From Burkholderiales bacterium (GTDB taxonomy: Bacteria > Pseudomonadota > Gammaproteobacteria > Burkholderiales > SG8-39), in assembly GCA_041617635.1 (NCBI GenBank), contig JBFJOO010000005.1, positions 23,033 to 87,032 of the forward strand: a stretch of 64,000 nucleotides of DNA, in the 5' to 3' direction. Below, piece after piece: positions 43,901-61,550 of this stretch. The notes beneath the pieces are model-generated. The model searched no databases, was not told where the DNA came from, and was given only the letters and a program-made list of their open reading frames with translations. Both the position numbers and the translations under genes were made by a program. Each line of letters starts with the position of its first letter. Positions within the stretch are counted from its first letter, which is position 1.

Positions 43901-44094
43901 CTAAGCGGGCCGCTCGATTTCTCCAAGGTGCTGGCCGCGACACTCACGCGCCCCTAGAATAGGGCCGGTCCAATCGCGCCTGGCCGGACTACGCACCCGC
44001 GTAATCCATGAATGGGCTCGAGCGTGGACCGATTCTAACCCAGTCACCGCCCGCCACCCGCCCGATGCACCCGCGATTGCCCGCAGCGAACGCC

Positions 44095-46788
44095 ATGCCC
44101 GAAACGATCTCTCCCGCCGACGCGATGCGCTACTCGCGATTCGTCCAGCGGCTGTGCGCCGCGCAGCCGGATCTGGGCGAAGAGCTCGAGAAAGCCGTCG
44201 GTGCCGGCTGGACGGCCGCGGACATGCGCGCGTTTCTCGTGGCCGCGCCCTGCGACGACGCGGCCGCCTTCGAGGCGGCGCTGCGCCGGCTGCGCCAGCG
44301 CGTGATGCTGCGGCTCGCCGCCCGCGACCTCGCCAACCTCGCGTCGCTTGACGAAGTGATGGCGACGACGAGCGATCTCGCGGAAATCGCGATCGCGGCT
44401 GCGCAGGACTTCCATACAACAGCCCTCGAAGCGACGCTCGGCGTGCCCAGCACCGATGGGAAGCGCCAGGAACTGATCGTGATCGGCATGGGCAAGCTCG
44501 GTGGTCGCGAGCTGAACGTTTCATCGGACGTGGATCTCGTGTTTGCATATCCTCACGAGGGCGACGTGGAAGGGCCGCGCGCCCTTTCCAACCACGAGTT
44601 CTTCACGCGGCTCGGCAGGAAGATCATCGGATCGCTCAACGAGATCACGCCGGACGGCCGGGTGTTTCGCGTGGACATGCGCCTGCGGCCCTGGGGCGAG
44701 CCCGGGCCGCTCGTCTGCAGCTTCGATGCGCTCGAGCAATATTTCGTCACGCAGGGCCGCGCGTGGGAGCGCTACGCCTGGATCAAGGCGCGCGCGCTGA
44801 CCGGCGGCGAGGCGAAGTCGCTCGCCGATGTGGTGCGGCCGTTCGTGTTTCGCAAGTACCTGGATTTCGCTTCCATCGGAGAGGTGCGGTCCTTGCACGC
44901 GCAGATCCGCCGCGAGGTGGCGCGGCGTGACCTCGCTAGCGACGTGAAGCTCGGGCCGGGCGGCATCCGCGAGATCGAGTTCATCGCCCAGGCGCCGCAG
45001 CTGATCCGCGGCGGACGCGACGTGGCGCTGCAGGTGCGGCCCACCCTCGCGGTGCTGGAGGCGCTCGGCGCCCGCGATCTTCTCCCGCCGGTGGCAGTCC
45101 AGGAGCTTTCCGCCGCGTACGGGTTCCTGCGCCGGGTCGAGCATCGACTGCAATGGCTCGACGACGCGCAGACTCACGCGCTGCCCACCACCGCTGACGA
45201 TCGCCAGCTCCTGGCGGAAAGCATGGGATGCGAGGACTGGTCGCAGTTCCAGGTCCTGCTGGACGAGCAGCGCGCCGCCGTCACGCGTCATTTCGAGAGC
45301 ATCTTCGCGGAGCACGCCGAGGATTCGACGTCCGTTCCGCTCTGGCAAGGGTCGCTCGATCCCGAGGCTGCCGCGACGGAGCTCGCGACCCGCGGATTCA
45401 GCGCGCCTGACGACGCCATGCGCCGGCTTGCGGCGTTCCGCGGCAGCACGCGCTACCAGCAGCTACCGGAGACCAGCAAGCAACGGCTGGAAACGCTCGT
45501 GCCGCGCGTCATCGACGAGGCCGCCAAGACTTCCGACCCAGGCACGACGCTTGCACGCTGCCTCGACTTCGTCGAGAGCGTGAGCCGGCGCGCAGCGTAC
45601 CTCGCCCTCCTCCAGGAGCATCCGCAGGCCCTCGAGCGCGTTGCGGCCATGCTCGCCTCCTCGAGCTGGGCCGCGGCTTATCTCACGCGCCACCCCATCG
45701 TCCTGGACGAGCTCCTCGACGCCCGCGTCCTCTTCGCCGAGCCCGATCTCGCCGCCTTCTCGCGCAGCATGCGCGATGCGATGACCGCGCACGAGGAGGA
45801 TCCGGAAACGCAGATGAATGCGATGCGCGAGATCCATCACGGCGAGATCTTCCGCCTGCTCGCACAGGATCTTGCCGGAGAGCTCACCGTGGAGCGGCTC
45901 GCGGATCATCTCTCGCTCGCCGCGGACATCGTCCTGGCCACGACGATCGACGTGGCCTGGAAGCGCGTGAACAACCGGCATCGCGACACGCCCTGGTTCG
46001 CGATCGTGGGCTATGGAAAGCTCGGCGGCAAGGAGCTCGGTTACGCCTCCGACCTGGACCTGGTGTTTCTGTACGACGATTCGCACGCCGCGGCAACCGA
46101 GACCTACACGCGCCTCGGCCAGCGGATCAACACGTGGCTCACCACGACGACCCCGGCGGGCACGCTGTTCGAGACCGACTTGCGGCTGCGGCCGAACGGG
46201 GACGCGGGGCTGCTGGTGTCGTCGCTGGAAGCGTTCCGTCGCTATCAACGCGAATCGGCCTGGGTGTGGGAGCACCAGGCGCTCACGCGCGCGCGGTTCT
46301 GCGCCGGGGACGCCGAGATCGGCGCGCTCTTCGAGGCGGAGCGCAAGAGCATCCTGACCCTCCAACGCGAGCCCGCCAAGCTCGCCGAGGAGGTCCTCGC
46401 GATGCGCCGGCGCATGCACGAAGGTCATCCGAACCACAGCGAGCTCTTCGACGTCAAGCACGACCGCGGCGGAATGATCGACATCGAGTTCGTGGTGCAA
46501 TTCCTGGTGCTCGCCTACTCCCACCGCCACGCCGAGCTCGTGGCCAACCTGGGCAACATCGCGCTGCTGTCCATCATGGCGGGCCTCGGTCTGGTGCCCG
46601 TGGCGCTCGCCGAGCAGGTCCGCACGGCTTATCGGGACTACCGCCGCGTGCAGCACCGCCTGCGCCTGACCGGGGCGCCGTACGCCCGGGTTCCGCACGG
46701 AGACGTCGCCCAGCACGCCACGGCGACGCGCGCACTCTGGAATGCGGTGTTCGGGCCGTACGAGGGCGCGGCGGGGGGGACGGACTGA
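44095..46788 (+). CDS. glnE: Glutamine synthetase adenylyltransferase
   Basis: Two NT domains: GMGKLGGRELNVSSDVDL and GYGKLGGKELGYASDLDL. Confidence 0.96.
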   Translation: MPETISPADAMRYSRFVQRLCAAQPDLGEELEKAVGAGWTAADMRAFLVAAPCDDAAAFEAALRRLRQRVMLRLAARDLANLASLDEVMATTSDLAEIAIAAAQDFHTTALEATLGVPSTDGKRQELIVIGMGKLGGRELNVSSDVDLVFAYPHEGDVEGPRALSNHEFFTRLGRKIIGSLNEITPDGRVFRVDMRLRPWGEPGPLVCSFDALEQYFVTQGRAWERYAWIKARALTGGEAKSLADVVRPFVFRKYLDFASIGEVRSLHAQIRREVARRDLASDVKLGPGGIREIEFIAQAPQLIRGGRDVALQVRPTLAVLEALGARDLLPPVAVQELSAAYGFLRRVEHRLQWLDDAQTHALPTTADDRQLLAESMGCEDWSQFQVLLDEQRAAVTRHFESIFAEHAEDSTSVPLWQGSLDPEAAATELATRGFSAPDDAMRRLAAFRGSTRYQQLPETSKQRLETLVPRVIDEAAKTSDPGTTLARCLDFVESVSRRAAYLALLQEHPQALERVAAMLASSSWAAAYLTRHPIVLDELLDARVLFAEPDLAAFSRSMRDAMTAHEEDPETQMNAMREIHHGEIFRLLAQDLAGELTVERLADHLSLAADIVLATTIDVAWKRVNNRHRDTPWFAIVGYGKLGGKELGYASDLDLVFLYDDSHAAATETYTRLGQRINTWLTTTTPAGTLFETDLRLRPNGDAGLLVSSLEAFRRYQRESAWVWEHQALTRARFCAGDAEIGALFEAERKSILTLQREPAKLAEEVLAMRRRMHEGHPNHSELFDVKHDRGGMIDIEFVVQFLVLAYSHRHAELVANLGNIALLSIMAGLGLVPVALAEQVRTAYRDYRRVQHRLRLTGAPYARVPHGDVAQHATATRALWNAVFGPYEGAAGGTD

Positions 46789-46967
46789 GGCGCCGGCATT
46801 CGCGCCGGAGATAAGTCTTATCGGCGCGCCCGGACATCATCCGGGTCAAGAGGGAATTCCAGTAGAATTTCCACCCGCTTTCCACCTACCTTCCACGCGA
46901 CTCCACGCAACTTAGGCACCGAGCCACTCAACCCACACAATGCAGCGCTGACAGGGAGCGAACAAAA

Positions 46968-47945
46968 ATGTCGATGGCGGACCGCGACGGGACCATCTGG
47001 TATGACGGCAAGCTCGTGCCGTGGCGCCAGGCGACCACCCATGTGCTCACACACTCGCTGCACTACGGGCTCGCCGTCTTCGAGGGCCTGCGCGCATACA
47101 AGACGACCGACGGGACGGCGATCTTCCGGCTGAAGGAGCACACCGATCGGCTGTACAACTCGGCGCACATCTACATGATGAAGATCCCGTACACGCGCGC
47201 GGTCCTCATGGAGGCGCAGAAAGCCGTCGTGCGCGAGAACAAGCTCGAGTCGTGCTACGTCCGGCCGATCGCGTTCTACGGCTCGGAGAAGATGGGGGTG
47301 TCGCCGAAAGGCGCGACCGTGCACGTCGCGGTGGCCGCATGGCCGTGGGGCGCGTATCTCGGCGCCGAGGGACTCGAGCGAGGCATCCGGGTCAAGACCT
47401 CCTCCTATGCGCGCCATCATGTGAACGTCTCCATGTGCCGCGCGAAGTACTCCGGCACCTACGCCAACTCGATCCTCGCGAACGCCGAAGCGGTCGACCA
47501 CGGATACGACGAAGGGCTGCTGCTCGACGTGGACGGGTTTGTGGCCGAGGGTGCAGGCGAGAATCTTTTCGTGATCAAGGACGGCCAGATCTATGAGCCC
47601 GAGATCGCCTCGGCCCTGGTGGGCATCACGCGGTCGACGATCCACCAGCTCGCGAAAGACCTCGGACTCTCGATTGTGACCAAGCGCCTGACGCGCGACG
47701 ACATCTACATCGCCGACGAGGCGTTCTTCACCGGCACGGCGGCCGAGGTGACGCCGATCCGCGAACTTGACGGGCGCGTGATCGGCGCCGGCAAGCGGGG
47801 CCCGGTCACCGCCAAGATCCAGAAGGCCTTCTTCGACGTGGTGGGCGGCCGCAACAAGAAGTACCAGAGTTGGCTCGCCTCGGTCTATCCGGCCGGAAAG
47901 AAGGCGACGAAGGCCGCCAAGACATCGAAAGGGAGCAAGCGGTGA
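46968..47945 (+). CDS. ilvE: Branched-chain amino acid aminotransferase
   Basis: HSLHYGLAVFEG, EGAGEN, FTGTAAEVTPI. Confidence 0.96.
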   Translation: MSMADRDGTIWYDGKLVPWRQATTHVLTHSLHYGLAVFEGLRAYKTTDGTAIFRLKEHTDRLYNSAHIYMMKIPYTRAVLMEAQKAVVRENKLESCYVRPIAFYGSEKMGVSPKGATVHVAVAAWPWGAYLGAEGLERGIRVKTSSYARHHVNVSMCRAKYSGTYANSILANAEAVDHGYDEGLLLDVDGFVAEGAGENLFVIKDGQIYEPEIASALVGITRSTIHQLAKDLGLSIVTKRLTRDDIYIADEAFFTGTAAEVTPIRELDGRVIGAGKRGPVTAKIQKAFFDVVGGRNKKYQSWLASVYPAGKKATKAAKTSKGSKR

Positions 47946-48142
47946 TGCCCGACACGGTGCAGAAGGAGCAGGTGATCGAGGTGGCCGAGCGGGATCTTCC
48001 GCTCCACTGCCCGACGCCGCGCACACCGGTCTGGTGCTATCACCCGCGCGTGTTCCTCGACGTCGCGCACGCCGGCGAAGCGCGCTGCCCGTACTGCGGC
48101 ACGCTGTATGTCTACAAGGGACCGCCGTCCAGCGGACACTAA
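47945..48142 (+). CDS. Zinc-finger (zf-CHCC) protein
   Basis: LPLHCP, HPRVFL, CPYCG. TGATG overlap with ilvE. Confidence 0.88.
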   Translation: MPDTVQKEQVIEVAERDLPLHCPTPRTPVWCYHPRVFLDVAHAGEARCPYCGTLYVYKGPPSSGH

Positions 48143-48207
48143 GAGTATGGATCGCCTCGACGGATGAATCGGCCCCGCGCGGTCTTGCAAGACAGCCTGT
48201 AACTGCC

Positions 48208-49251
48208 ATGCCGCGCATCGTCGTCGTCGCGCCCAACTGGATAGGCGACACGCTGCTCGCGCAGCCGCTGTTTGCCAGGCTTCACCAGAAGCTTCCCGGC
48301 CTCAAGCTGGACGCGCTTGCGCCCGCGTGGACTGCCCCGGTGCTTGCGCGCATGCCGCAGATCGACGAGGTGATCGAGTCGCCTTTCGCTCACGGCGAGC
48401 TCAAGCTGCTCGAGCGCTGGCGCCTCGGCCGGCAGATCCGGACGGTAGGCTACGATCAGGCGATCATCCTCCCGAACAGCTTCAAGTCGGCATTGGTGCC
48501 GTGGTTCGCCGACATCCCGTTGCGGGTCGGATTCGTCGGCGAATCGCGCTATGGCGTGCTCAATATCCGGCACAAGCTCGACGCGCCAGCGCTGCCCCTC
48601 ATGGCCGAGCGCTATGCGAAGCTTGCCGAACCGCCCGATGCGCCGCCGGTCCGGCCCTTGCGCGCCGCGCGCCTCGAGATCAACGAGGCAAACCTGGTGA
48701 TCACCTTGAGCCGGCTCGGGCTCTCTCGGTCGCGCCAGATCGCCGTCCTTTGCCCTGGCGCGGAGTACGGTCCCGCGAAGCGCTGGCCCGCGGGCCATTT
48801 TGCCGCGCTCGCCAAGGCCCTGGCCGCTCGCGGACTGGCCGTGTGGCTGATCGGCTCGGCCAAGGACAAGCCGGTCGCCGATGAGATCGCGGCAGGCTGC
48901 GACGATGCGGTGCTCAACCTGTGCGGGCGCACGGATCTCGGCGGGGCGATCGACTTGATGTCGCTCGCAAGCGTGGTGATCAGCAACGACTCGGGACTCA
49001 TGCACGTCGCATCGGCGCTCGGCCGTCCGCTCGTGGCGATCTACGGGTCCTCGAGCCCCGACCACACCCCGCCGCTCAGCCCCGGCGCGCGCATCGTCAA
49101 GCTCGACATCGAATGCAGCCCGTGCTTCGCGCGGGTCTGCCCCCTCGGTCACTTCCGGTGCATGAACGATCTCAAGCCGGAGCTGGTGCTCGCGGCCATC
49201 GATGCGCTCACCCGCAGCCCACGCCCGTTCAGTTCCGAGAACCGCCCGTGA
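48208..49251 (+). CDS. waaF: LPS heptosyltransferase II
   Basis: PNWIGD, PNSFKSA, CPGAEYGPAKRW, SNDSGLMH. Confidence 0.95.
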   Translation: MPRIVVVAPNWIGDTLLAQPLFARLHQKLPGLKLDALAPAWTAPVLARMPQIDEVIESPFAHGELKLLERWRLGRQIRTVGYDQAIILPNSFKSALVPWFADIPLRVGFVGESRYGVLNIRHKLDAPALPLMAERYAKLAEPPDAPPVRPLRAARLEINEANLVITLSRLGLSRSRQIAVLCPGAEYGPAKRWPAGHFAALAKALAARGLAVWLIGSAKDKPVADEIAAGCDDAVLNLCGRTDLGGAIDLMSLASVVISNDSGLMHVASALGRPLVAIYGSSSPDHTPPLSPGARIVKLDIECSPCFARVCPLGHFRCMNDLKPELVLAAIDALTRSPRPFSSENRP

Positions 49252-49403
49252 CCACGCGCCCGCTGCGTGCACCCGAAGCGTGCGAATGTGCGGCATCGCG
49301 CACCATGAGCGAACGCGCATTGGGGCCCTACCACCACGCCCCCGTCCCGTTCGCCGACTGGCACGGGCGTTGCTAAACTCCGGTTGTCGAACTTGGGGCG
49401 TAC

Positions 49404-50387
49404 ATGACCTTCGCACACCTCATCAAGGAAATCGGGCGCGGGGAACGCGGCGCAAACGATCTCGACGAATCGGACGCGCGCCAGTTGTTCGGCGCCATGC
49501 TCGATGGCGGCGTTCCGGAGCTCGAGCTTGGCGCGATCCTGATCGCACTGCGCATGAAAGGCGAGTCGATCGGCGAGCTGGTCGGGTTCCGGCAGGCCGC
49601 CCAGGAGCGTCTGATCCGGTTGAGTCCACCGCCCGGCAACGTGCGCCCCGCGATAATCCCGAGCTACAACGGCGCGAAGCGTCAACCCAATCTCACCCCG
49701 CTGGTTGCAATGCTGCTCGCCAGGATGGGCGTGCCCGTGCTCGTGCACGGGACACTCGAGGGACAGGACCGGGTCGCGAGCGCGTACGTACTCCGCGAGC
49801 TTGGAATTCTCCCCTGCACGAGCGTCGCCCAGGTGCAGGCGCAGCTCGAAACCGAGCGCCTCGCGTTCGTTCCGACCGGCGCGATCTCCCCCGGGCTCGC
49901 CAGTCTGCTGACGATACGCGGCCGGCTAGGTCTGAGGAATTGCGCTCACACCGTGGTCAAGCTGATCGACCCGTTCGGTGGGGGGAGCGTTTGCGTGGTC
50001 GGCGTGACCCACCCGCATTATCTTGATGCGGGTCGCGGCGTGCTGCTCGCGGCCCGCGAACGCGGGTTGATCTTTCGCGGGACGGACGGCGAGTCGTTCG
50101 CCAACCCGCGCAAGCGACCGCGCATCGAGTATCTCTACGACGGCCAGAGCGACGTGCTGTTCGAGGCGGAGCACGTTTCCCCGGATGCGCGCGCCGACTC
50201 GCCCCAGGACATCGAGGCGCGCGCCACCGCAGCGTACATCCGCAATGTGCTCGAGGGGCGTGCACCCTTGCCGATGCCGATCGCGAACCAGCTCGCCTGC
50301 TGCCTCTACGCCACCGGATTCGCCGCCGACTTCAACCAGGCCAAAGCGCTCGCCGCCGTGCAGGCGCATACGCGGGCGATGGCATGA
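49404..50387 (+). CDS. ybiB: YbiB (TrpD-like DNA-binding protein)
   Basis: IKEIGRG, LRMKGES, IPSYNGA..QPNLTPL. Confidence 0.92.
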   Translation: MTFAHLIKEIGRGERGANDLDESDARQLFGAMLDGGVPELELGAILIALRMKGESIGELVGFRQAAQERLIRLSPPPGNVRPAIIPSYNGAKRQPNLTPLVAMLLARMGVPVLVHGTLEGQDRVASAYVLRELGILPCTSVAQVQAQLETERLAFVPTGAISPGLASLLTIRGRLGLRNCAHTVVKLIDPFGGGSVCVVGVTHPHYLDAGRGVLLAARERGLIFRGTDGESFANPRKRPRIEYLYDGQSDVLFEAEHVSPDARADSPQDIEARATAAYIRNVLEGRAPLPMPIANQLACCLYATGFAADFNQAKALAAVQAHTRAMA

Positions 50388-50439: not shown

Positions 50440-51879
50440 CTACCCCACGGTGGCGTCGGACGTCGCATCGATGCGGCCGTGGCCCACCGCCTCGGCCAGC
50501 AGCGTTTCCTGCAAGGACAGCCACTCGACGGGACCACCGGCCGAGCGCTGTCTGAGCAGCGCGGTGCTGACGCGGGTGCGGCCGGCTTCGCCCCCGTGTG
50601 ACTCCACGTAGGTGGCGAGGCAGAGACCACCCTCGTAGCGCCGTAGCGACACGTCGCGAATCTCCAGGCGGTAGCGCTTTGGCTTTTCACCAAACGCGCT
50701 GGCGAAGCTCCGCAACACGCCCGCCTTCCCATCGCGCCTGCCGTTTGGGTGGACGACCACGAAGTCCTCCGCGAGCGCCGCAGCCAGCCGCGCGAAGGCG
50801 ATATCGCGGTTCGGCACGTCGCCTTTGAGCCAGCGCTCAAGACCGCGGTGGAAATCGAGCACCTCCGCGAAAAAGGAATCGTCGGTCGCTCCGGCACGTT
50901 CCTCGCGGCCGACGCCGTGCGCGCTACCCGACCCGATGATCCTGTAATCGTCGGCGGGGCCAACCGGGACGATGGTCGGATCGATTTCCCCGATCGCGTC
51001 GTAGTAATGGCGCTTGACGTGGTCGAGCTTGACGGTCTCGGCGACGCCCGGAACGTCGTGAACTCTCCGCGCATACGCGGTGAGCGCCGGATAGTCGACC
51101 AGGCGACGCAGGTTGCATCGGAGCGCGCCATGATAAACGGCGTCAAAGCGACAGAGCGTCGCGAACAGGTGCCAGTCGCTCTCGGTCAGCTGGTCGCCCA
51201 GCAGATAGGGCTGCCGCGACAGCCGGCGCTCGAGTTCGTCGAGCGCCGCGAAGAGCGCGACCACCGCGCGCTCATACGCATGCTGGGTCGCGGCGAATCC
51301 CGCCCGGTAGACGCCCGCGCAGACGGTTGGGATGAGCCAGGCGTTCAGCGCGTCGATGTCGGCGCGCAGGGCCGGTGGATAGAAGTCCGCCGCGGCGTCG
51401 CCCCACTCGTCGAACGCCGAGTTGAGCATCCGGATGATTTCGCCCGACTCGTTGCTCACGATGGTTTCGGTCGCCCGATCCCACAATACCGGAACGCTGA
51501 CTCGCCCGGTGTAGTCGGGCTTCGCGGCGCGGTAGACCTCGTGCAGAAACCGCCGTCCGGCGACGTGATCGACGGTGCTCATGGCGCCGTCGTCGAAGCG
51601 CCACCCCTCCGGGGTCGCCCATCTCGGGTGCAGCACCGACATGGTGACGACGTTTTCGAGGCGCTTGAGTTGCCGATAGATGATGGTGCGGTGCGCCCAG
51701 GGGCAGGCATAGCTTACGTACAGGTGATAGCGACCGGGCTCGGCTCTGAATCCGGAACGCCCGTCCGCCGTCACCTGGCCGCGAAAGCCGCGCGCCCCGG
51801 CGAGTGCGCTGCGCACCGCCGCTGTCTCGTCCAGACGTCCATGCCAGACGCCGCCGATGAGTGCCCTGATCTCCCGCAT
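50440..51879 (-). CDS. Glutathionyl-hydroquinone reductase (YqjG-like) fused to DUF4440/NTF2-like domain
   Basis: RYHLYVSYACPWAHR, SVPVLWD, NESGEIIR, HVKRHYY, then about 140 aa ending WLSLQET. Confidence 0.85.
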   Translation of the reverse strand: MREIRALIGGVWHGRLDETAAVRSALAGARGFRGQVTADGRSGFRAEPGRYHLYVSYACPWAHRTIIYRQLKRLENVVTMSVLHPRWATPEGWRFDDGAMSTVDHVAGRRFLHEVYRAAKPDYTGRVSVPVLWDRATETIVSNESGEIIRMLNSAFDEWGDAAADFYPPALRADIDALNAWLIPTVCAGVYRAGFAATQHAYERAVVALFAALDELERRLSRQPYLLGDQLTESDWHLFATLCRFDAVYHGALRCNLRRLVDYPALTAYARRVHDVPGVAETVKLDHVKRHYYDAIGEIDPTIVPVGPADDYRIIGSGSAHGVGREERAGATDDSFFAEVLDFHRGLERWLKGDVPNRDIAFARLAAALAEDFVVVHPNGRRDGKAGVLRSFASAFGEKPKRYRLEIRDVSLRRYEGGLCLATYVESHGGEAGRTRVSTALLRQRSAGGPVEWLSLQETLLAEAVGHGRIDATSDATVG

Positions 51880-52004
51880 GCCGTTCAGCCCGTCAGCCCT
51901 TTGGCCCGCATGGCGTCGCGGCCGCTCGGTCGCGCCGCGATCCGGTACAGCTTCGTGCCCATCGTCGAATCCTCCTGGTCGGGTGACATGGCGCAACGCT
52001 ATAC

Positions 52005-52021
52005 TGTTCACGGCTGCAACA
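52005..52021. promoter_or_regulatory. Putative LysR binding site
   Basis: Inverted repeat TGTT-N9-AACA (contains T-N11-A) between divergent genes. Confidence 0.45.
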
Positions 52022-52051
52022 CCATTCGACAAAGGCGTAATCGGACTTTGC

Positions 52052-52954
52052 ATGGATGAACAGCAATCGAGCTGGGACGACCTGCGTACGGTGCTCGCCA
52101 TTGGCCGGACCGGCTCCCTCTCGGGCGCGGCGCGGACCCTGCGCGTCAGCCACCCGACGGTCTTCCGGCGCATCAACCAGATCGAGCGGCGCCTAGGGGT
52201 GCGCCTGTTCGAGCGGAAGCGCGCGGGCTACACGCTCACCGTTGCGGGCGAGGAATTGGTCGCCGTTGCCGAGCGTGTGGAAGAGGACTTGAGCGGCGTC
52301 GAGCGACGGCTCGCCGGGCAGGATCTGCGGCCGTCGGGAACGGTGCGGGTGACGACCACCGACACCTTGGTGGCTTTGCTGATCCCGATCTTCGCCGAGT
52401 TCCGCGCGGCCCACACGGGGATCGAGCTCGACCTCATCGTCTCGAGCGAGTTGCTCAATATCAGCCGGCGGGATGCCGACGTCGCGATCCGGCCCTCACG
52501 GCAGGTCCCGGAGAACCTGATCGGGCGGAAGGTGAGCGAGATCGGAATGGCCGTGTACGGCCATGAGCGCCTGTTCGCGAACCGCCGTCGCGACGCCGCC
52601 TTCGAGGACTACCCGTGGGTCGGGCCCGACGAGAGTCTGTCCTATCTACCGCTCGCCCGCTGGCTACGCGAGCGGAGGCTCCACGAGCGGCTCGTCTATC
52701 GCGCCAACACGCTGCTCGGCTGCCACGAAGCGGCGCGCGGCGGGATCGGGCTCGCGGTGCTGCCGTGCATGCTCGGCGATCCCGCGCCCGAGCTCGTGCG
52801 CGTCGGACCGTTGCTCGACGACCTGCAGGGCGAACTCTGGCTGCTCACGCATCGCGACCTGCGGGACGTCGCACGGATCCGCGTCTTCCTCGACTTCGTC
52901 ACGGAAGCGCTGAGAGCGCGCCGCGCGCTCTTCGCGGGACGGCGAAAAGCGTGA
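52052..52954 (+). CDS. LysR-family transcriptional regulator
   Basis: WDDLR, GSLSGAAR..VSHPTVFRRI..E..LG..LF.R, DADVAIR. Confidence 0.93.
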   Translation: MDEQQSSWDDLRTVLAIGRTGSLSGAARTLRVSHPTVFRRINQIERRLGVRLFERKRAGYTLTVAGEELVAVAERVEEDLSGVERRLAGQDLRPSGTVRVTTTDTLVALLIPIFAEFRAAHTGIELDLIVSSELLNISRRDADVAIRPSRQVPENLIGRKVSEIGMAVYGHERLFANRRRDAAFEDYPWVGPDESLSYLPLARWLRERRLHERLVYRANTLLGCHEAARGGIGLAVLPCMLGDPAPELVRVGPLLDDLQGELWLLTHRDLRDVARIRVFLDFVTEALRARRALFAGRRKA

Positions 52955-54457: not shown

Positions 54458-55702
54458 TCAGGACTGCCGTGCGGCTCCAGACTTTCTGGCCGGCCATTCC
54501 TTCCAGCGCCGGTGCACCCACCACCACTGCTCGGGGTGGCGCAGGATCATCCGCTCGAGGCTCGCATTGTAGAGCCGGGTGTTCGCCCGGATCTCCTCAC
54601 CCACGTCCTCGCGCGCGACCGGTTCGAGCGGCTCTTCAAAGCGCAGCACGTGCCGGCCATCCGCACCGCGCCAGCTCGACGCGGGCAGCACCGGAGCGCC
54701 GCTCGCCTGCGCGATGAGCGCGACGCTGCGGAACGTGCCCGCCGAATGGCCGAAGAATTCCACGCGCACGCCATCCTTCGGCCCGGCATGCTGGTCGAAC
54801 GGAAACACGACGATATCGCCCGCCGCGAGGCGCTCGAGAATGGCGTCAAGGGAGCCGCTCTTCGGCAACACGCCGAATCCCGCCTGGCGGAAGCGGCGGA
54901 TGATCACGGCGTCGAGCCAGCGCGGCTTGAACGGACGCCGCACGAAGTAGAACTTGCCCTTCGCCTGCGGAAAGCTCGCGATGCCGGCGGCGGTCGAGAC
55001 TTCCCAGTTGCCGAAATGGCCCGTCACGACGATCACGCCCTTGCCGCGCGCGTGCGCGGCGATGACGGTCTCGGGATTCTCGACCCACGCGCGCGCTGCG
55101 CGTTGCGCGGCGGTCAACCAGGGAAACACCAGGAACTCGCCCACGAGTCGCCAGAGATGAGCGTAGTGCGCCTGCGCCATGCGCCGGATCTCGTCCTCCG
55201 CGACGGTCGCGCCGAACACGCGGCGCAGATTGTCCAGCACGACCCGCCGGCGCAACGGGAAGCAGTGAAAGATGAGCTTGCCCGACAGCGGCACGGTGAT
55301 GTGCTCGGGCTCGGCGAGTGCGACCGCCGAGGCGCTGGTGCGATCGTGAGTGAGCGACAATGCGATCGACTTGATGCGATGTCTGCCCAGCACGGCTTCG
55401 GCGGCGGGGCTGCATATGGCCCGGGGCGCGCCATAGGCATCGCGGGCGACCGAGAAATCCGCCGCAGTGACTAGGTTCAGGGCGGTTTCGCGCGGAAAGA
55501 GCTTGAGACACGCTTCCTTTGCCGCGAATCGCGCGGCGAGGCTCGCCGCGCGGCCGGCGCCGTCGCCGCTCTCGCGCAGCTCGTCAGCCGAGTAAAGCTT
55601 GGCGAGATCGTCCGGCGGCGATTCGCGCAGCAGGCGCTCGATGCGCGCGATCTCGACCGTGTCGATGCCGCAGCGTGCGGACGACGCGGGGGCTTCGGGC
55701 AT
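54458..55702 (-). CDS. Fusion: holo-ACP synthase (AcpS) + LpxL/HtrB-family lipid A acyltransferase
   Basis: N-terminal GIDTVEIARI, ARFAAKEA, SLTH. C-terminal GHFGNWE, FDQH, HPEQWWWVHRRWK. One uninterrupted frame. Confidence 0.85.
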   Translation of the reverse strand: MPEAPASSARCGIDTVEIARIERLLRESPPDDLAKLYSADELRESGDGAGRAASLAARFAAKEACLKLFPRETALNLVTAADFSVARDAYGAPRAICSPAAEAVLGRHRIKSIALSLTHDRTSASAVALAEPEHITVPLSGKLIFHCFPLRRRVVLDNLRRVFGATVAEDEIRRMAQAHYAHLWRLVGEFLVFPWLTAAQRAARAWVENPETVIAAHARGKGVIVVTGHFGNWEVSTAAGIASFPQAKGKFYFVRRPFKPRWLDAVIIRRFRQAGFGVLPKSGSLDAILERLAAGDIVVFPFDQHAGPKDGVRVEFFGHSAGTFRSVALIAQASGAPVLPASSWRGADGRHVLRFEEPLEPVAREDVGEEIRANTRLYNASLERMILRHPEQWWWVHRRWKEWPARKSGAARQS

Positions 55703-55707
55703 CGGTG

Positions 55708-56994
55708 CTACGCAGCGCGAGCGGCACGGAACACGAGCGCCGCGTTGGTTCCGCCGAAGCCGCGCGACACGATGAGCGCGACGTCGCTTCGCGGCGTCTG
55801 CGCACGCGCGGACACCGGCATGCGCGCAAGCGCGGGATCGGGCTCGCGCAGCGTCGCGATGCCCGGCACGGATCGCGCGCGCAGCGCCTCGAGCGCGAGC
55901 ACGCAATCCAGCATGCCGGATGCGGCGATCAGGTGGCCGAACGCCCACTTGAATCCGGTGACCGGCGGCGGGTCGTCGCCGAAGACGCGGCGAATGGCCG
56001 CCGCCTCGGATGCATCCGAGTTGCGCGTGCCGTTCGCGTGCGCGACGATCATGCCGACGTCGGCCGCACGCAGTCCCGCATCGTCGAGCGCCGCCTGCAT
56101 CGCCGCGGCGGGACCTTCACCGTCGTCGCGTATCGGCAGCAGACCTTCGCCCTCGATCGTCGAGCCGCCGCCGAGATACTCGCCGAGCACGGGAACGCCG
56201 CGCGCCGCCGCGGAGGCCTCGGTCTCGAGCACGAGCCCGCCGGCACCCTCGCCGAAAAGGCTGCCGTCCCGTCCGGCATCGAACGGTCGCAGCACCTCCT
56301 TGGCGACCACGCCGATGGCGTCGTAATAGACGAGCGTCTGCGGCTCGATCGGCGCGTCGTGCGCGACCGTGACGGCGCGATCGGCCTCGGCCGCGCGCAG
56401 ACCGATTGCGGCCTCCATGATGGCGAGCATGCCGCTCACGCTGTGGTTCGTGATGCAGGCGTTCGCCCCCTTCAGGTTGTACTTGATACCGATGTGGCAC
56501 AGCACGTTGTTGGGCAGTGCCCGCAGCAGCCACATCGGATTCACGACCTCGGGGAGCTGGCGGCCGAATTCGACGAGGTCGCCTGCTGCGCTCGTCATGA
56601 GCGGAAAATAATCGTACTGGCCATCGTACGTTCCGCCGCCGGAGCCGACGTAGACGCCGGTCCGGTCGCTGTATTCCGCGGCAGCGGCCTCCTCCAGCCC
56701 ATCGCGCCACGCCGCAATGCCCGCTGCATCGATCGCGCGGCTTGCCGCGTACAGGCCGAACACATCGGAACGCCGGATGAACTTGAGGATCTTGCGGTCG
56801 CCCAGCAGCTTGGCCGGCTCGAGGCTCCGAACCTCGCCCGCGCGCTGCCGCGGCCAACCCGTCACGTCCCACAGCGCGATGGGGCCGATCGCGGATCGGC
56901 CGGACTGCAGAGTCTCCCAGATTTCCGCCGGACTCCTGCCCGCCGCGCAGATCGCGCCGCTGCCCGTGATGAGGATTCTCGGGTCCCCGGCCAT
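55708..56994 (-). CDS. Ketosynthase-like protein lacking catalytic Cys (chain-length-factor-like)
   Basis: FabF-fold motifs (RPFD, GEGAG, RGFGGTN), but TNHSVSG replaces TACASG. Confidence 0.85.
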   Translation of the reverse strand: MAGDPRILITGSGAICAAGRSPAEIWETLQSGRSAIGPIALWDVTGWPRQRAGEVRSLEPAKLLGDRKILKFIRRSDVFGLYAASRAIDAAGIAAWRDGLEEAAAAEYSDRTGVYVGSGGGTYDGQYDYFPLMTSAAGDLVEFGRQLPEVVNPMWLLRALPNNVLCHIGIKYNLKGANACITNHSVSGMLAIMEAAIGLRAAEADRAVTVAHDAPIEPQTLVYYDAIGVVAKEVLRPFDAGRDGSLFGEGAGGLVLETEASAAARGVPVLGEYLGGGSTIEGEGLLPIRDDGEGPAAAMQAALDDAGLRAADVGMIVAHANGTRNSDASEAAAIRRVFGDDPPPVTGFKWAFGHLIAASGMLDCVLALEALRARSVPGIATLREPDPALARMPVSARAQTPRSDVALIVSRGFGGTNAALVFRAARAA

Positions 56995-58292
56995 CACCCG
57001 AGCTCCGCGGGATTGCGCAGCGCGACGCAGCTGTTGGAACCGCCGAAACCGAGCGAGTTCGACAGCGCGATCCGGACGCGACGCTCGCGCGGGCGGTCGC
57101 GCACGATGTCCAGATGCTCGCAGTCCGCATCGGTCTCGCGCAGATTCGCGTTCACGGGCAGCACGCCGTGATGGATGGCGAGCGCGCACACCGCGGCCTC
57201 GACTGCGCCCGCCGCCGCGATGAGATGGCCCATCACGCTCTTCGTCGAGCTGACGGCCACACTGCCGACGTGCGCACCGAACACCACCTTCGCCGCCGCG
57301 CTCTCGCTGCGGTCGTTCATGGGCGTCGAGGTGCCGTGCGCGTTGAGATAGTCCACGTCGGTGGGCTCGGCCCCGGCATCGCCGAGCGCCTGGCGCATGG
57401 CCTGGATCGGGCCGTCGCCCGATGGGTGCGAATCGGTTATGCGATAGCTGGAAAGCGAGTTGCCGTCGCCGGCGAGCTCCGCATAAATGCGCGCGCCGCG
57501 TCGGCGCGCCGCCTCCCATTCCTCGAGGACCAGGAACCCCGCCCCTTCACCCAGCACGAATCCATTGCGGGTGGCGTCGAAGGGGCGGCTCGCGCGCTCG
57601 GGCGTTTCGTTGTCCGGGGAAACTGCGCCGAGCAGGCAAAAGCCGGCGAGGCCGATTGGCGAGACCATCGAGTCGAATCCGCCCGCGAGCACGCGATCGA
57701 CCGTGCCGCGGCGGATCAGCTTCATCGCGGTGCCGACCGCCTGCCCCCCCGATGCGCAGGCGGTGTGGACGGACGTCGCATAGCCGCGAATGCCGAAGCG
57801 CCGGGCGAGGAGCGAAACCCCGGCGGTGGACTGGCTCCGGCAGAACGCCATCGGGTCGTGCGCCGCTTCGTCGGTCAGCAGGCGCGCGACATCGATCTCG
57901 CCGCCCGCCGCGGAATGGGCATGCACCGCAGCGAGGGTCGCATAATCGACGCCCATCATGCCGGTGCCCACGGCCACGCCCCAGCGCGTGGCGGTCTCGG
58001 GCGCGGGGCGGATACCGGAATCGCGAATCGCCTCATCGGCCGCCGCCACCGCGAAGGCGTGCGAGCGATTCGCGAACTTCAGAAGCTTGCGATCGTCGAT
58101 CACCGCGCGCGGATCGAATCCCTTCACCTCCGCGGCGATGCGCGTCGAGAAACCGCTCGCATCGAAGAGCGTCACGGGCGCGACGCCGCTGCGACCCGCG
58201 AGCAACGCGTCCCACGTCGTCGCGACGTCGTTGCCGGCCGGCGTGACGAGCCCCAGGCCGGTCACCGCGACCCTGCGCCGCGGCACGCTCAT
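56994..58292 (-). CDS. Beta-ketoacyl-ACP synthase (FabF-like, active)
   Basis: HTACASG, NAHGTST, KSVMGH, GFGGSN. Confidence 0.92.
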   Translation of the reverse strand: MSVPRRRVAVTGLGLVTPAGNDVATTWDALLAGRSGVAPVTLFDASGFSTRIAAEVKGFDPRAVIDDRKLLKFANRSHAFAVAAADEAIRDSGIRPAPETATRWGVAVGTGMMGVDYATLAAVHAHSAAGGEIDVARLLTDEAAHDPMAFCRSQSTAGVSLLARRFGIRGYATSVHTACASGGQAVGTAMKLIRRGTVDRVLAGGFDSMVSPIGLAGFCLLGAVSPDNETPERASRPFDATRNGFVLGEGAGFLVLEEWEAARRRGARIYAELAGDGNSLSSYRITDSHPSGDGPIQAMRQALGDAGAEPTDVDYLNAHGTSTPMNDRSESAAAKVVFGAHVGSVAVSSTKSVMGHLIAAAGAVEAAVCALAIHHGVLPVNANLRETDADCEHLDIVRDRPRERRVRIALSNSLGFGGSNSCVALRNPAELG

Positions 58293-59131
58293 GCGTTTCT
58301 CCGCGCCACGATCTCCACCCGCGCGGTCGCGACGGGCTTGCCGTTCGCACGCGCCGAGAGCTTCGCCGCAAAAGCGTAGGCCTCCGCCGGCACGCGCTCC
58401 GCCCCGATCTCCAGCTCCTGCCCGGGGGAGATGAACGCGCGGATCTTCACGTCCAGGATCCGCGCGGCGGAGAGCTCGGTGCCGGCGGGAGGTGCCAAAG
58501 CCTCGCGCGCCAAGCCGATCGCGAGGCGGATCTGGCTGTCGAGCAGCAGCGTCGCTGGAAAGACCGGACGCCGCGGGAAGTGGTCCTGGAAGAAAGCGGC
58601 CGATGCGGGCACGCGCAGCAGCGCCTTGGCGCGCTCGCCGGGGGAGGACTCGACGGGCACGAGCTCGAATGCCGGCACGCCCGCGAACCGGTCGCTCGCC
58701 GCGCCCGCGCCACAGAGCAATTCATAGTCGCTGCGCAACGCGTCGGGCGCATCGAATTCTTCCGCAGGCAGCATCGGACCGAGACACTGATCGAGCACGA
58801 TCACGGGTTCTCCGCCCACGACCGCCCGTCCAGCGTAGGCCACGTCATCGTCGGTGCACGTCTCGAGATCGGCCTCGAGCGCGAGCGAATCGCCCGGCTT
58901 GACCGTGCGCAGAAATCGCGTTTCGCGCGCCAGCCCCGCCACCGGCCGCCGTCGGAACCCGAGATGCGCCATGCTCGCCCATGCGGCAAGCTGGCCCACC
59001 GACTCCGCAACGAGCGATGCGGGAAACTCGCGCACCCGGGTCGGAACGTGAAACGTTCCGCGCACGCGCACGCCGGGCACGACGTCGGTGATGCGATCGA
59101 CAAAGGAGAAAGCGCGGAAGCGCTCGCCCAT
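58289..59131 (-). CDS. Double hot-dog FabZ-like dehydratase
   Basis: FSFVDRI, ESVGQL, FFQDHFPRRPVFPATL. Confidence 0.82.
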   Translation of the reverse strand: MGERFRAFSFVDRITDVVPGVRVRGTFHVPTRVREFPASLVAESVGQLAAWASMAHLGFRRRPVAGLARETRFLRTVKPGDSLALEADLETCTDDDVAYAGRAVVGGEPVIVLDQCLGPMLPAEEFDAPDALRSDYELLCGAGAASDRFAGVPAFELVPVESSPGERAKALLRVPASAAFFQDHFPRRPVFPATLLLDSQIRLAIGLAREALAPPAGTELSAARILDVKIRAFISPGQELEIGAERVPAEAYAFAAKLSARANGKPVATARVEIVARRNA

Positions 59132-59161: not shown

Positions 59162-59587
59162 TCAGCCGGCGTCCTTCTGCGCACGGACCACCAGCTTGCA
59201 GAACGTCTCGGCGGTGAACAGGCGCGGCACATCGGCCACCTTGAGTGGCGACTTGATGCGGTCGGCGGGCACCTCGGAAAGGAACGTGCGTACGCGCGCG
59301 ATGCCGGCGTCGGTCACCATGCCCTTCTGCTCGAACTCCGCCTCGGGCAGATCCCCGCGCGCATCCTCCACGATCTTGCCCCGGGGGATCTTCACTTTGA
59401 AGGCGCGCTCCAGGCGGAACACGAGGTCGAGAAAATCGATCGACTCCGCGTCGAGGCCATCGATCAGCGACACGTCCAGCTTGACGTCCTCGGCGTCGCA
59501 CCCCAGCGCATCGGCGATCGTCGCCGCGACGGTGGGGTAAACCGCCATGATCTCTTCCTTAGTGATTTCCGCCTGCGCCATTTCCAT
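59162..59587 (-). CDS. Extended acyl carrier protein
   Basis: LDAESIDFLDLVFRLERAFKVKIP, about 140 aa with a long insertion before the final helix. Confidence 0.85.
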   Translation of the reverse strand: MEMAQAEITKEEIMAVYPTVAATIADALGCDAEDVKLDVSLIDGLDAESIDFLDLVFRLERAFKVKIPRGKIVEDARGDLPEAEFEQKGMVTDAGIARVRTFLSEVPADRIKSPLKVADVPRLFTAETFCKLVVRAQKDAG

Positions 59588-60346: not shown

Positions 60347-61102
60347 TCATCCCGAGATCGCAAAGCCGCCGTCGACGACAAGCGTGTGTCCGTTGATCAT
60401 GGCCGCCTCCGGGAGACACAAGAGATACACGGCGCCCGCAACGTCCTCGGGCGTAAGCGTGGGCCCGGCGGGCGTGCGCTGCGCGAACGATTCGAGCAGC
60501 TGCTCGCGATTCGGGAAGTAACCGAGCGCATCGGTGTCGACCACCCCTGCGCTGACCGTGTTCACGCGGATGCCGCGCGGACCCAGCTCCTGCGCCAGCG
60601 TGCGGACCATGGCTTCGAGCGCCGCTTTGGATGCCCCGACGAATCCGTACGCGGGCATCGCGCGCACGGCACCGAGGCTCGACATTGCGATGATGCGGCC
60701 GCCGGCGGGCATCATCGGGACCACGTGCTGCGCAAGCAGCGTGAGCGCCAGCGCGTTCGTCTCCATGCACCAGCGCCAGTGCTTGAGCGACATCTCCATG
60801 GCCGGCCGCAGCACGCCGCTCGCGGCGTTGCTCACCAGGATATCGACGCGCTCGAAGTGCTTGCGCAGTTCCGCGAAGAGCTCGTCGACGCTGTCCGGCA
60901 TGCCCACGCTCGCCTTGAGCGCGCACGCGCGCCGGCCCATCGCGCGCAGCTCCCTGCACAGCGCTTCCGCCTCGTCGTGGCTGTTGTAATAGTTCACCGC
61001 CACGTCGCATCCCGCGGTGGCGAGCTTGCGCGCGATCGCGCGGCCGATGCCGCGTGCCGCCCCCGTCACGAGCGCGACCTTGCCGTCCAAAGCGCCTGCC
61101 AT
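60347..61102 (-). CDS. FabL-like enoyl-ACP reductase (SDR)
   Basis: SNAASGVLRP and Y-x6-K (YGFVGASK), as in FabL. Confidence 0.82.
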   Translation of the reverse strand: MAGALDGKVALVTGAARGIGRAIARKLATAGCDVAVNYYNSHDEAEALCRELRAMGRRACALKASVGMPDSVDELFAELRKHFERVDILVSNAASGVLRPAMEMSLKHWRWCMETNALALTLLAQHVVPMMPAGGRIIAMSSLGAVRAMPAYGFVGASKAALEAMVRTLAQELGPRGIRVNTVSAGVVDTDALGYFPNREQLLESFAQRTPAGPTLTPEDVAGAVYLLCLPEAAMINGHTLVVDGGFAISG

Positions 61103-61160: not shown

Positions 61161-61550
61161 AGGTGAAGCTGGCCGATAAGCCGGGTTCTGTCCGGCGCCT
61201 CGCGGCGCTCCGGCAGTCATTCATCTAGGCCCTGGGTCGCCCCGGGGCTCGAGCAACCAACCCGCAGGCATCGGGCGAGCAGCCCTCGAACGCCTGCCTA
61301 TTCGGTCTTGCTCCGGGTGGGGTTTACCAGCCAGCCCTGTTACCAGGACCGCGGTGCGCTCTTACCGCACCATTTCACCCTTGCCTGATCTCCCCCGCTG
61401 ACGAATCAGCGGGCGAGCCATCGGCGGTGTGTTTTCTGTTGCACTTTCCGTCGCCTCGCGACGCCCGGCCGTTAGCCGGCACCCTGCTCTGTGGAGCCCG
61501 GACTTTCCTCTGAAAAGCAAACGCTTCCCAGCGACTGCCTAGCCAGCTTC
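61161..61550 (-). ncRNA. rnpB: RNase P RNA, class A
   Basis: Minus strand GAGGAAAGTCCGGGCTCC, GGGTGAAATGGTGCGGTAAGAGCGCACC, GACAGAACCCGGCTTATC. P1 is GAAGCTGGC/GCCAGCTTC. -10 TATCAT at 61558-61563. Confidence 0.97.

Follow-up and report, generated by a model that had tools for sequence, protein, structure and literature searches.

The 64,000-nucleotide (nt) stretch of contig JBFJOO010000005.1 analysed here (the window), which derives from a Burkholderiales bacterium, carries on its minus strand a gene in which an AcpS-type phosphopantetheinyl transferase domain is joined in one reading frame to an acyltransferase domain of the LpxL/PatA type. The evidence confirms that this fusion is a genuine gene and not an assembly artefact, and its architecture, detected in at least 574 species-level genomes in a scan of species representatives, is not rare in databases, merely unstudied. 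The fusion is the last gene of a seven-gene operon that also encodes an acyl carrier protein (ACP). With moderate confidence, we interpret it as a bifunctional enzyme that would start and end a private lipid pathway, the chain being esterified to a membrane glycolipid, most likely lipid A or a lipopolysaccharide (LPS) precursor.

Translation of the frame from 55702 to 54458 yields 414 residues and a stop, with the ATG located 5 nt past the TAG of the upstream ketosynthase gene (KS2). In the open reading frame listing the same frame stays open to a GTG at 55948 (496 amino acids, aa), a start that was rejected on two grounds: the added stretch runs into the upstream gene, and homologues begin within a few residues of the ATG. 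Pfam searches matched ACPS (PF01648) to aa 11-96 (E-value 2.2e-8, 34.5 bits, cut-off 25) and Lip_A_acyltrans (PF03279) to aa 141-401 (E-value 4.5e-38, 131.5 bits, cut-off 22.3), and NCBIfam holo-ACP synthase models spanned aa 11-131. An initial inspection of the DNA letters (hereafter, the sequence-only reading) had proposed a 414-aa frame joining AcpS to an LpxL/HtrB-type acyltransferase, and this proposal was borne out by the translation, by both model libraries and by the related loci described below. All the motifs that it had quoted for the two halves were located in the protein: GID (12-14), FAAKEA (59-64), SLTH (116-119), HFGNWE (229-234), DQ (303-304) and PEQWWWVHRRWK (390-401). In an AlphaFold2 model of the fusion (56 homologues; predicted local distance difference test score, pLDDT, 89.1; predicted TM-score, pTM, 0.87), a strand (123-132) is followed by a helix (139-147), and Foldseek searches with this model returned no single solved chain spanning both halves.

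The locus analyses presented here encompass the best 80 of the at least 574 relatives, 79 of which could be examined for a fused frame. One continuous fused frame was observed in 78 of these 79 loci, with lengths of 396-445 aa in 76 of them and run-on frames of 618 and 733 aa in the other two (L021:7986-9842 and L074:7995-10196), where a further fusion or a lost stop may be present. A split frame was found only in L077, where the split falls inside the AcpS part; apart from this, nothing was found in favour of the fusion being an artefact produced by a frameshift, by misassembly or by merging two neighbouring genes. The sequence-only reading had suggested a domain-architecture search for ACPS with Lip_A_acyltrans and a read check at the junction. 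The former recovered both domains in all 120 best database matches (397-432 aa), and in the latter the junction (~55286-55306) was bridged with zero indels by contigs of 4/4 public sequencing runs from two studies, which may include the sample from which the bin of the window was assembled. The only difference near the junction in the run contigs was a third-position change at 55472 (T>C; CTA>CTG), which by our reading is synonymous. Given that database matches, frames of relatives and run contigs all present a continuous fusion, the artefact explanation is refuted and its probability can be considered negligible.

To the extent that motif conservation can indicate it, both domains appear intact, as had been claimed for AcpS. 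In an alignment of 79 sequences (the window protein and those of 78 loci), 76 retain the complete set of nine catalytic-motif residues from the two halves, and the halves are equally conserved, with a mean pairwise identity of 0.63 for the AcpS part and of 0.625 for the acyltransferase part. The residues D14, E63 and K67 (the latter two in the KEA-x-x-K motif) and H119, which we take to be the catalytic (metal- or coenzyme A (CoA)-binding) residues of AcpS, are kept in 79/79 sequences, and S116 in 77/79. The titles of PDB entries among the fold matches name D9A, H110A and D111A mutants of AcpS, in agreement with these residue assignments. The AcpS half folds into one alpha/beta domain of roughly 120 aa with the topology of AcpS, matching AcpS 3qmn in Foldseek (E-value 2.2e-8, target TM-score 0.86, 125 columns) and also the AcpS-like domain found in fungal fatty acid synthase (FAS), and it passes the cut-offs of the TIGR00556 domain model (47.7 versus 45.35) and of PF01648.

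In the acyltransferase half, H229, D303 and Q304 are kept in 79/79 sequences and E234 in 78/79, and a PDB title describing E127A of LpxM as a catalytic residue substitution agrees with the assignment of these residues. Foldseek matched this half to PatA 5f2t (E-value 2e-16, target TM-score 0.86) and to LpxM 5kn7 (target TM-score 0.69). The highest 19-residue Kyte-Doolittle window in the fusion reaches 1.16, against 1.92 at the N-terminus of LpxL_a, one of the LpxL-type proteins of the same genome, and the first 41 of the 295 profile positions of PF03279 are left unmatched. These two features indicate that the usual LpxL anchor helix is absent, as the sequence-only reading had noted, and its absence is not a consequence of the fusion, since unfused members of the subfamily also lack it.

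The operon encodes, in this order on the minus strand, a FabL-type enoyl-ACP reductase, a FabG-like reductase, a 141-aa ACP, a double-hotdog dehydratase, two ketosynthase-like proteins (KS1 and KS2) and the fusion, with gaps or overlaps of at most 30 nt between genes. The atypical ACP that the gene had been said to accompany is thus encoded in the same operon. Its attachment Ser is kept in 68/68 sequences, the residue before it, usually Asp, is Glu in 67/68, and about 60 additional, well-conserved residues follow the PP-binding part. In the AlphaFold2 model of this protein (pLDDT 87.5) only the first ~65 residues match solved ACPs, weakly; Foldseek returned no match at an E-value of 0.001 or lower, the additional ~60 residues having no structural analogue in this search, and a protein atlas returned only clusters named 'putative acyl carrier protein'. 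The FabG-like protein falls under the TIGR01830 cut-off (273.4 versus 297.75 bits) while passing that of NF009466. The active-site Cys of KS1 is kept in 73/75 sequences. In KS2, pairwise alignment places NHSVSG opposite TACASG, and the active-site column varies among its relatives (n=74; Ser in 49, Cys in 13, Thr in 7, Gly in 3 and Val in 2). Because this column varies while KS1 keeps its Cys, KS2 looks like a non-catalytic partner resembling a chain-length factor. No gene for FabH, FabD, a thioesterase or an acyl-CoA ligase was found in the operon, and a promoter and terminator scan revealed nothing convincing at its ends. Of the 66 loci that extend 5.7 kb or more upstream of the fusion, 64 have the seven genes in colinear order, each at 40% identity or higher; L035 has a fragmented dehydratase gene, and in L080 the ACP and the reductases were not found. 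Fourteen truncated loci present whatever genes fit on them, in the same order.

The general mechanism that we propose, and regard as probable, is that the AcpS half primes the cluster ACP, a chain is built on it and the acyltransferase half transfers this chain to a membrane lipid. In particular, the AcpS-type domain would move 4'-phosphopantetheine from CoA to Ser49 of the operon ACP, on which KS1/KS2, the FabG-like reductase, the dehydratase and FabL would run full reducing elongation cycles leading to a saturated chain. The ketosynthase pair would set its length, which would probably exceed that of housekeeping chains. Since the operon lacks FabH, FabD and thioesterase genes, priming and malonyl loading would be borrowed from the host. 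The anchor-less C-terminal domain would then take the finished acyl-ACP and esterify the chain onto a membrane glycolipid; judging from the context, this would most likely be lipid A or an LPS precursor, to which the chain would be added as a secondary one. This acceptor assignment is tentative, and it is put first because of the protein family, the LpxO-like neighbour and LPS-gene neighbourhoods of some loci and the rhizobial precedent discussed below. The fusion of activator and off-loader would make the seven-gene cassette independent of host AcpS and reductases. The insulation from housekeeping FAS put forward in the sequence-only reading is, like the phosphopantetheinylation of the cluster ACP, an inference.

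The genome of the window (G000; 4.58 Mb, 91% complete) contains a separate AcpS gene on contig 29, whose product is 36% identical to the corresponding half of the fusion, and two tandem LpxL-type genes on contig 30, with products 29-32% identical to the other half. The fusion is hence an additional, pathway-linked copy and not a replacement. Metagenome contigs (L093, L094, L096, L097, L098 and L100) outlined, in addition, a sister cassette comprising ACP, dehydratase, KS1, KS2 and an unfused acyltransferase. Its ACP has 131 aa and the same AESIDFLDL motif, its KS2 presents Ala at the Cys position, and its acyltransferase (286-290 aa) starts where the fusion linker would be and has no membrane helix. 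The scan that yielded these contigs was aimed at the locus of P0133, an unfused acyltransferase (48% identical), which was itself not found in metagenome contigs. In a tree of 32 acyltransferases, the fused (11 rows; Shimodaira-Hasegawa-like approximate likelihood ratio test, SH-aLRT, 98) and unfused (6 rows; SH-aLRT 100) proteins are sister groups within a joint clade (SH-aLRT 100), apart from the two LpxL paralogues of the genome and from the acyltransferases of AcpXL clusters.

Several observations weigh against the proposed interpretation, the first of them concerning the activating half. No AcpS domain or gene lies within 9 kb in the sister cassette, and no FabG or FabL gene was found within these contigs. 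Together with the sister position of the acyltransferases, this indicates that the fusion and the two reductases are a derived, self-sufficient state, a point in favour of the proposed interpretation. On the contrary side, the lack of an AcpS indicates that this type of ACP does not intrinsically need a dedicated activator. The earlier proposal of dedicated activation and unloading for the atypical ACP is consequently upheld in part, being supported by the additional, pathway-linked copy in the ACP operon and weakened by a sister cassette with the same ACP type and no AcpS. Furthermore, the AcpS half is under the acpS equivalog cut-offs (TIGR00516, 40.3 versus 59.8; NF000832, 55.2 versus 107), AcpS enzymes are trimers with active sites between subunits, and in two distant proteins of the same length class (P0127 and P0128; 43% identical) the catalytic residues of the AcpS half are gone but those of the acyltransferase persist. 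Because of this loss, the N-terminal domain may also have a non-catalytic role. Taken further, the domain could serve mainly in docking or scaffolding, recruiting the cluster ACP to the acyltransferase or oligomerising, and not as an active phosphopantetheinyl transferase, with host AcpS priming the ACP. Such a role would agree with the unfused cassettes doing without the domain, with the two distant representatives retaining it after losing D14, E63 or K67, with the sub-threshold equivalog scores and with the tight packing of the domain on the acyltransferase that the pTM of the model may suggest. We consider it improbable as the main function, given that D14, E63, K67 and H119 are invariant over two or more phyla, at a conservation equal to that of the acyltransferase, and that the domain passes the PF01648 and TIGR00556 cut-offs and presents the AcpS fold.

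The second set of contrary observations concerns the acceptor. The acyltransferase half is under every curated LpxL/LpxM/LpxP equivalog cut-off (NF006270, the best, 130.6 versus 248; TIGR02207, 80.1 versus 297.8; TIGR02208, 40 versus 336). Its closest solved relative is PatA, both by sequence (E-value 4e-10) and by fold (target TM-score 0.83-0.86), and PatA is an acyl-CoA user that acylates a mannolipid, not lipid A. The LpxL-type unloading onto lipid A put forward in the sequence-only reading is, on these grounds, not established with respect to the acceptor. In three of five genomes examined, genes for a heptosyltransferase, two GT4 glycosyltransferases, two AsnB-like proteins and an O-antigen ligase lie directly upstream of the cassette; these three genomes are close kin and count for little more than one observation, and the other two lack upstream LPS genes. 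Searches of the window's genome with tblastn returned no match at an E-value of 1e-3 or lower, at 91% completeness, for three accessory proteins encoded next to the cassette elsewhere.

These accessory genes were identified among the 61 loci with at least 2.2 kb upstream and the 73 with at least 1 kb downstream. A co-oriented gene for a ~430-aa protein with weak Condensation/PapA_C (PapA5-like) matches and an HxxxD-like motif lies upstream in 41/61 loci, and one for a lipoprotein of ~355 aa, which contains a GHSQGG motif but matches no Pfam family, in 38/61, both being present in 37/61 and neither in 19/61. Directly 3' of the fusion and on the same strand, 12/73 loci encode an LpxO/OlsC-type Asp/Asn beta-hydroxylase (PF05118, E-value 8e-47). 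As all three are absent from it, the window's genome is taken to carry the minimal form of the system.

The same enzymology could be directed to another acceptor, such as a glycolipid or polysaccharide lipid anchor, as for PatA and for the Vi-antigen acyltransferase VexE, an LpxL-family enzyme, or else a lysophospholipid or an amino lipid, ornithine lipids included. The proximity to PatA by sequence and fold, the lack of a membrane anchor, unlike in the genome's own LpxL paralogues, the failure of all LpxL-type equivalog cut-offs and the separate clade of the cassette acyltransferases, apart from LpxL-like and AcpXL-cluster ones, are all consistent with this alternative. LpxO-type hydroxylases also act on ornithine lipids, and the PapA5-like protein and the GHSQGG lipoprotein hint at a more elaborate lipid. 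The abstract of PMC9597891 describes a dedicated acyltransferase for the glycolipid anchor of the Vi-antigen capsule. Conversely, some genomes have LPS-core and O-antigen-ligase genes next to the cassette, a GT9 heptosyltransferase gene lies 5 kb from it in the window, and no gene for the synthesis of another acceptor accompanies the core cassette in a conserved manner. All the identified hosts belong, moreover, to phyla known for an outer membrane and LPS. A different acceptor seems less likely, and lipid A or an LPS precursor is retained as the leading candidate.

It could also be argued that the operon is a type II polyketide-like secondary-metabolite cluster, whose acyltransferase would attach or release a specialised product, as in aryl-polyene-type systems, and not a structural membrane lipid. 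The combination of a ketosynthase and a Cys-less partner typifies type II polyketide synthase (PKS)-like systems, and matches under cut-off were obtained for the FabG-like protein to the flexirubin FlxB model (248.7 bits) and for the ketosynthases to cispentacin AmcF. We nonetheless deem this very improbable, because a FabL over cut-off, together with the ketoreductase and the dehydratase, predicts fully reduced chains, and because the core cassette contains no cyclase, adenylation enzyme, methyltransferase, thioesterase or exporter.

According to submitters' labels, the hosts of the fusion are mostly Burkholderiales (Casimicrobiaceae and Alcaligenaceae, including the cultured Jezberella montanilacus, L072) and Verrucomicrobiota, while NC10, Binatia and Margulisiibacteriota account for one bin each. 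In a tree of 77 fusion proteins, which leaves out the two run-on frames, one clade is formed by Verrucomicrobiota and the other by betaproteobacteria, and the remaining three phyla fall within the betaproteobacterial one. The cassette was detected in 11 of 401 sampled Burkholderiales genomes, from few families only, and in none of 10 other genomes of the window's own family, 400 other Pseudomonadota or 300 other Verrucomicrobiota sampled, and the flanking genes differ between loci. This patchy distribution is transfer-like and fits a host-independent cassette. Six loci (L051, L053, L058, L061, L065 and L066) come from bins labelled Akkermansia muciniphila, Bifidobacterium, Bordetella parapertussis and Cyanobium; their cassettes group with those of environmental Verrucomicrobiota or Burkholderiales, and the labels or the binning look doubtful.

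More speculatively, the cassette may be a portable, self-priming envelope-lipid module, of an origin independent from that of AcpXL/LpxXL, which in uncultured Burkholderiales and Verrucomicrobiota would use a cis-activated expanded ACP to deliver a chain of defined, probably very long, length to an outer-membrane glycolipid, be it lipid A or a different one. The AcpS half might also dock the loaded ACP and pass it directly to the acyltransferase, and the products of accessory genes, namely the PapA5-like acyltransferase, a putative lipoprotein hydrolase and sometimes the LpxO-like hydroxylase, might elaborate the product in two thirds of the loci. No such lipid is known to us in these organisms. 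If this doubtful scenario holds true, at least several hundred bacterial species, mostly represented by metagenome bins, would make an unrecognised envelope acyl modification by means of a seven-gene module. The cassette is compact and could be moved to another host as one piece, making new outer-membrane lipid chemistry directly testable. It also provides a natural experiment on carrier-protein specificity, with the activator and the off-loader of one ACP on a single polypeptide and the sister cassette as an activator-less comparison.

The features of the cassette and of the related loci are compiled in the following table.

Coordinates and supporting evidence for the fusion gene, its operon and related loci (window positions unless a locus is named)
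Feature	Location	Strand	Evidence or remarks
Fusion gene, AcpS-type and LpxL/PatA-type acyltransferase, 414 aa	54458..55702	-	Translation, Pfam, NCBIfam, AlphaFold2, Foldseek; last operon gene
AcpS-type domain, aa 10-132	55307..55675	-	Pfam, NCBIfam, Foldseek 3qmn
Junction/linker PEHITVP, aa 133-139	55286..55306	-	Model secondary structure; bridged by contigs of four runs
LpxL/PatA-type acyltransferase domain, aa 140-405; H229-x4-E234, D303-Q304; no membrane helix	54488..55285	-	PF03279, Foldseek, hydropathy
KS2, ketosynthase-like partner, 428 aa, Ser for active-site Cys	55708..56994	-	Pfam; NCBIfam FabF-like 226.9 bits, under cut-off
KS1, FabF-like ketosynthase, 432 aa, Cys-His-His residues	56994..58292	-	Pfam; NF005589 423.5 bits, cut-off 387 passed
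Double-hotdog dehydratase, 280 aa, C-terminal half FabZ/FabA-like with HFP motif	58289..59131	-	Pfam FabA aa 168-270; NCBIfam FabZ, two stretches
Expanded ACP, 141 aa, attachment Ser49 in DAESIDFLDL	59162..59587	-	PP-binding aa 19-72
FabG-like 3-oxoacyl-ACP reductase, 250 aa	59587..60339	-	NF009466 246.6 bits, cut-off 222 passed
FabL-type enoyl-ACP reductase, 251 aa, first operon gene	60347..61102	-	NF005975 equivalog 353.9 bits, cut-off 328 passed
Low-G+C (41-43%) five-gene sister cassettes	L097:4718-9819 and L100:5150-9870
Accessory pair, example, upstream of FabL gene	L023:42-1343 and L023:1340-2401		PapA5-like protein and lipoprotein in many loci
LpxO/OlsC-type hydroxylase, example, hydrophobic terminal segments	L032:9369-10301	+	PF05118
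LPS-gene stretch, example, upstream of extended cassette	L087:3779-12223		Genome G403; similar in G401 and G402

Upstream of the operon, an RNase P RNA (RF00010, 315.6 bits; 61161-61550, minus strand) lies 58 nt from the FabL gene, on the same strand. Rfam searches revealed no RNase P RNA beside the cassette in four related loci (L002, L003, L005 and L016), suggesting that this adjacency is particular to the genome of the window. Downstream of the fusion lies a convergent flavin adenine dinucleotide (FAD) oxidoreductase gene. Further on, a long minus-strand frame (50440-52176) presents N- and C-terminal glutathione S-transferase (GST) domains and a SnoaL/DUF4440-like domain; its upstream part overlaps a LysR-type regulator on the other strand (51857-52954), and its true start is probably further in. 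Envelope and nitrogen housekeeping genes occupy positions 39986-50387, encoding YhdP (39986-43900, minus strand) and, on the plus strand, GlnE (44008-46788), a class IV aminotransferase (46968-47945), the GT9 heptosyltransferase (48034-49251) and a TrpD-like protein (49404-50387).

Regarding previous work, the sequence-only reading knew of no description of the fusion, and searches of the full-text literature, with most subscription journals outside its scope, likewise found no publication on an AcpS–LpxL-family fusion architecture; a literature search on a Legionella-type cluster did not find anything. To our knowledge, no fusion of AcpS to an off-loading LpxL-family acyltransferase has been described, and the proteins are currently annotated as '4'-phosphopantetheinyl transferase superfamily protein' or 'KDO2-lipid IV(A) lauroyltransferase', neither of which describes them. 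Membership in the LpxL/M/P, PatA or AcpXL/LpxXL families was considered and rejected, since the curated cut-offs failed and the tree places the fusion separately.

The closest functional parallel is the AcpXL-LpxXL system. The NF005079 model, which we take to be that of AcpXL, matches 24 of 301 sampled Pseudomonadota genomes and not the window's genome, and five comparison clusters (L180-L184) were built around ACPs passing it. The rhizobial cluster, as given in passages of PMC11901934, consists of acpXL, fabZXL, fabF2XL, fabF1XL, adhA2XL and lpxXL, and both it and the comparison clusters resemble the cassette in combining, in co-oriented genes of matching order, a dedicated ACP, a dehydratase, two ketosynthases (one of them divergent) and an LpxL-family acyltransferase. 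The differences are substantial: the window ACP scores 35.8 bits on NF005079 against a cut-off of 83 and has 141 aa versus 92 in rhizobia, and the acyltransferases of the comparison clusters are 25-27% identical to that of the fusion and form a separate clade (SH-aLRT 100 each). Furthermore, the cassette dehydratase is a double hotdog, the canonical and divergent ketosynthases stand in the opposite order, FabG and FabL are encoded within the cassette itself, and its acyltransferase carries the fused AcpS. Judging from these comparisons, the cassette is predicted to work like the AcpXL/LpxXL system, yet it is neither orthologous to it nor a member of it.

With LpxL, LpxM and LpxP the fusion shares PF03279, the H-x4-E motif, a C-terminal PEQWxWxHxRWK-type motif and the LpxM fold, whereas it lacks the N-terminal membrane helix and remains far under their equivalog cut-offs. 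PatA is its best solved match and is likewise peripheral and anchor-less, but the fusion is under the NF005919 cut-off (77.5 versus 209); PatA is not known to be linked to a dedicated ACP or synthase. An AcpS-fold domain of about 120 aa is common to AcpS, to the fusion and to the alpha subunit of fungal type I FAS, where it stands in cis with the synthase that is primed; here, in contrast, the fused partner is the off-loading acyltransferase of a type II system and not a megasynthase. The ketosynthases recall the KS/chain-length-factor pairs of type II PKS-like systems, in which a canonical ketosynthase is followed by a paralogue without the active-site Cys. Classical chain-length factors have Gln at that position, and the residue replacing Cys is variable in the cassette (Ser, Cys, Thr, Gly or Val, and Ala in the unfused cassettes), which also differs in including an enoyl reductase. 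Relative to known combinations of a dedicated-ACP synthase and an LpxL-family acyltransferase, what sets this one apart is the activator fused in cis, the cassette's own reductases and the expanded ACP.

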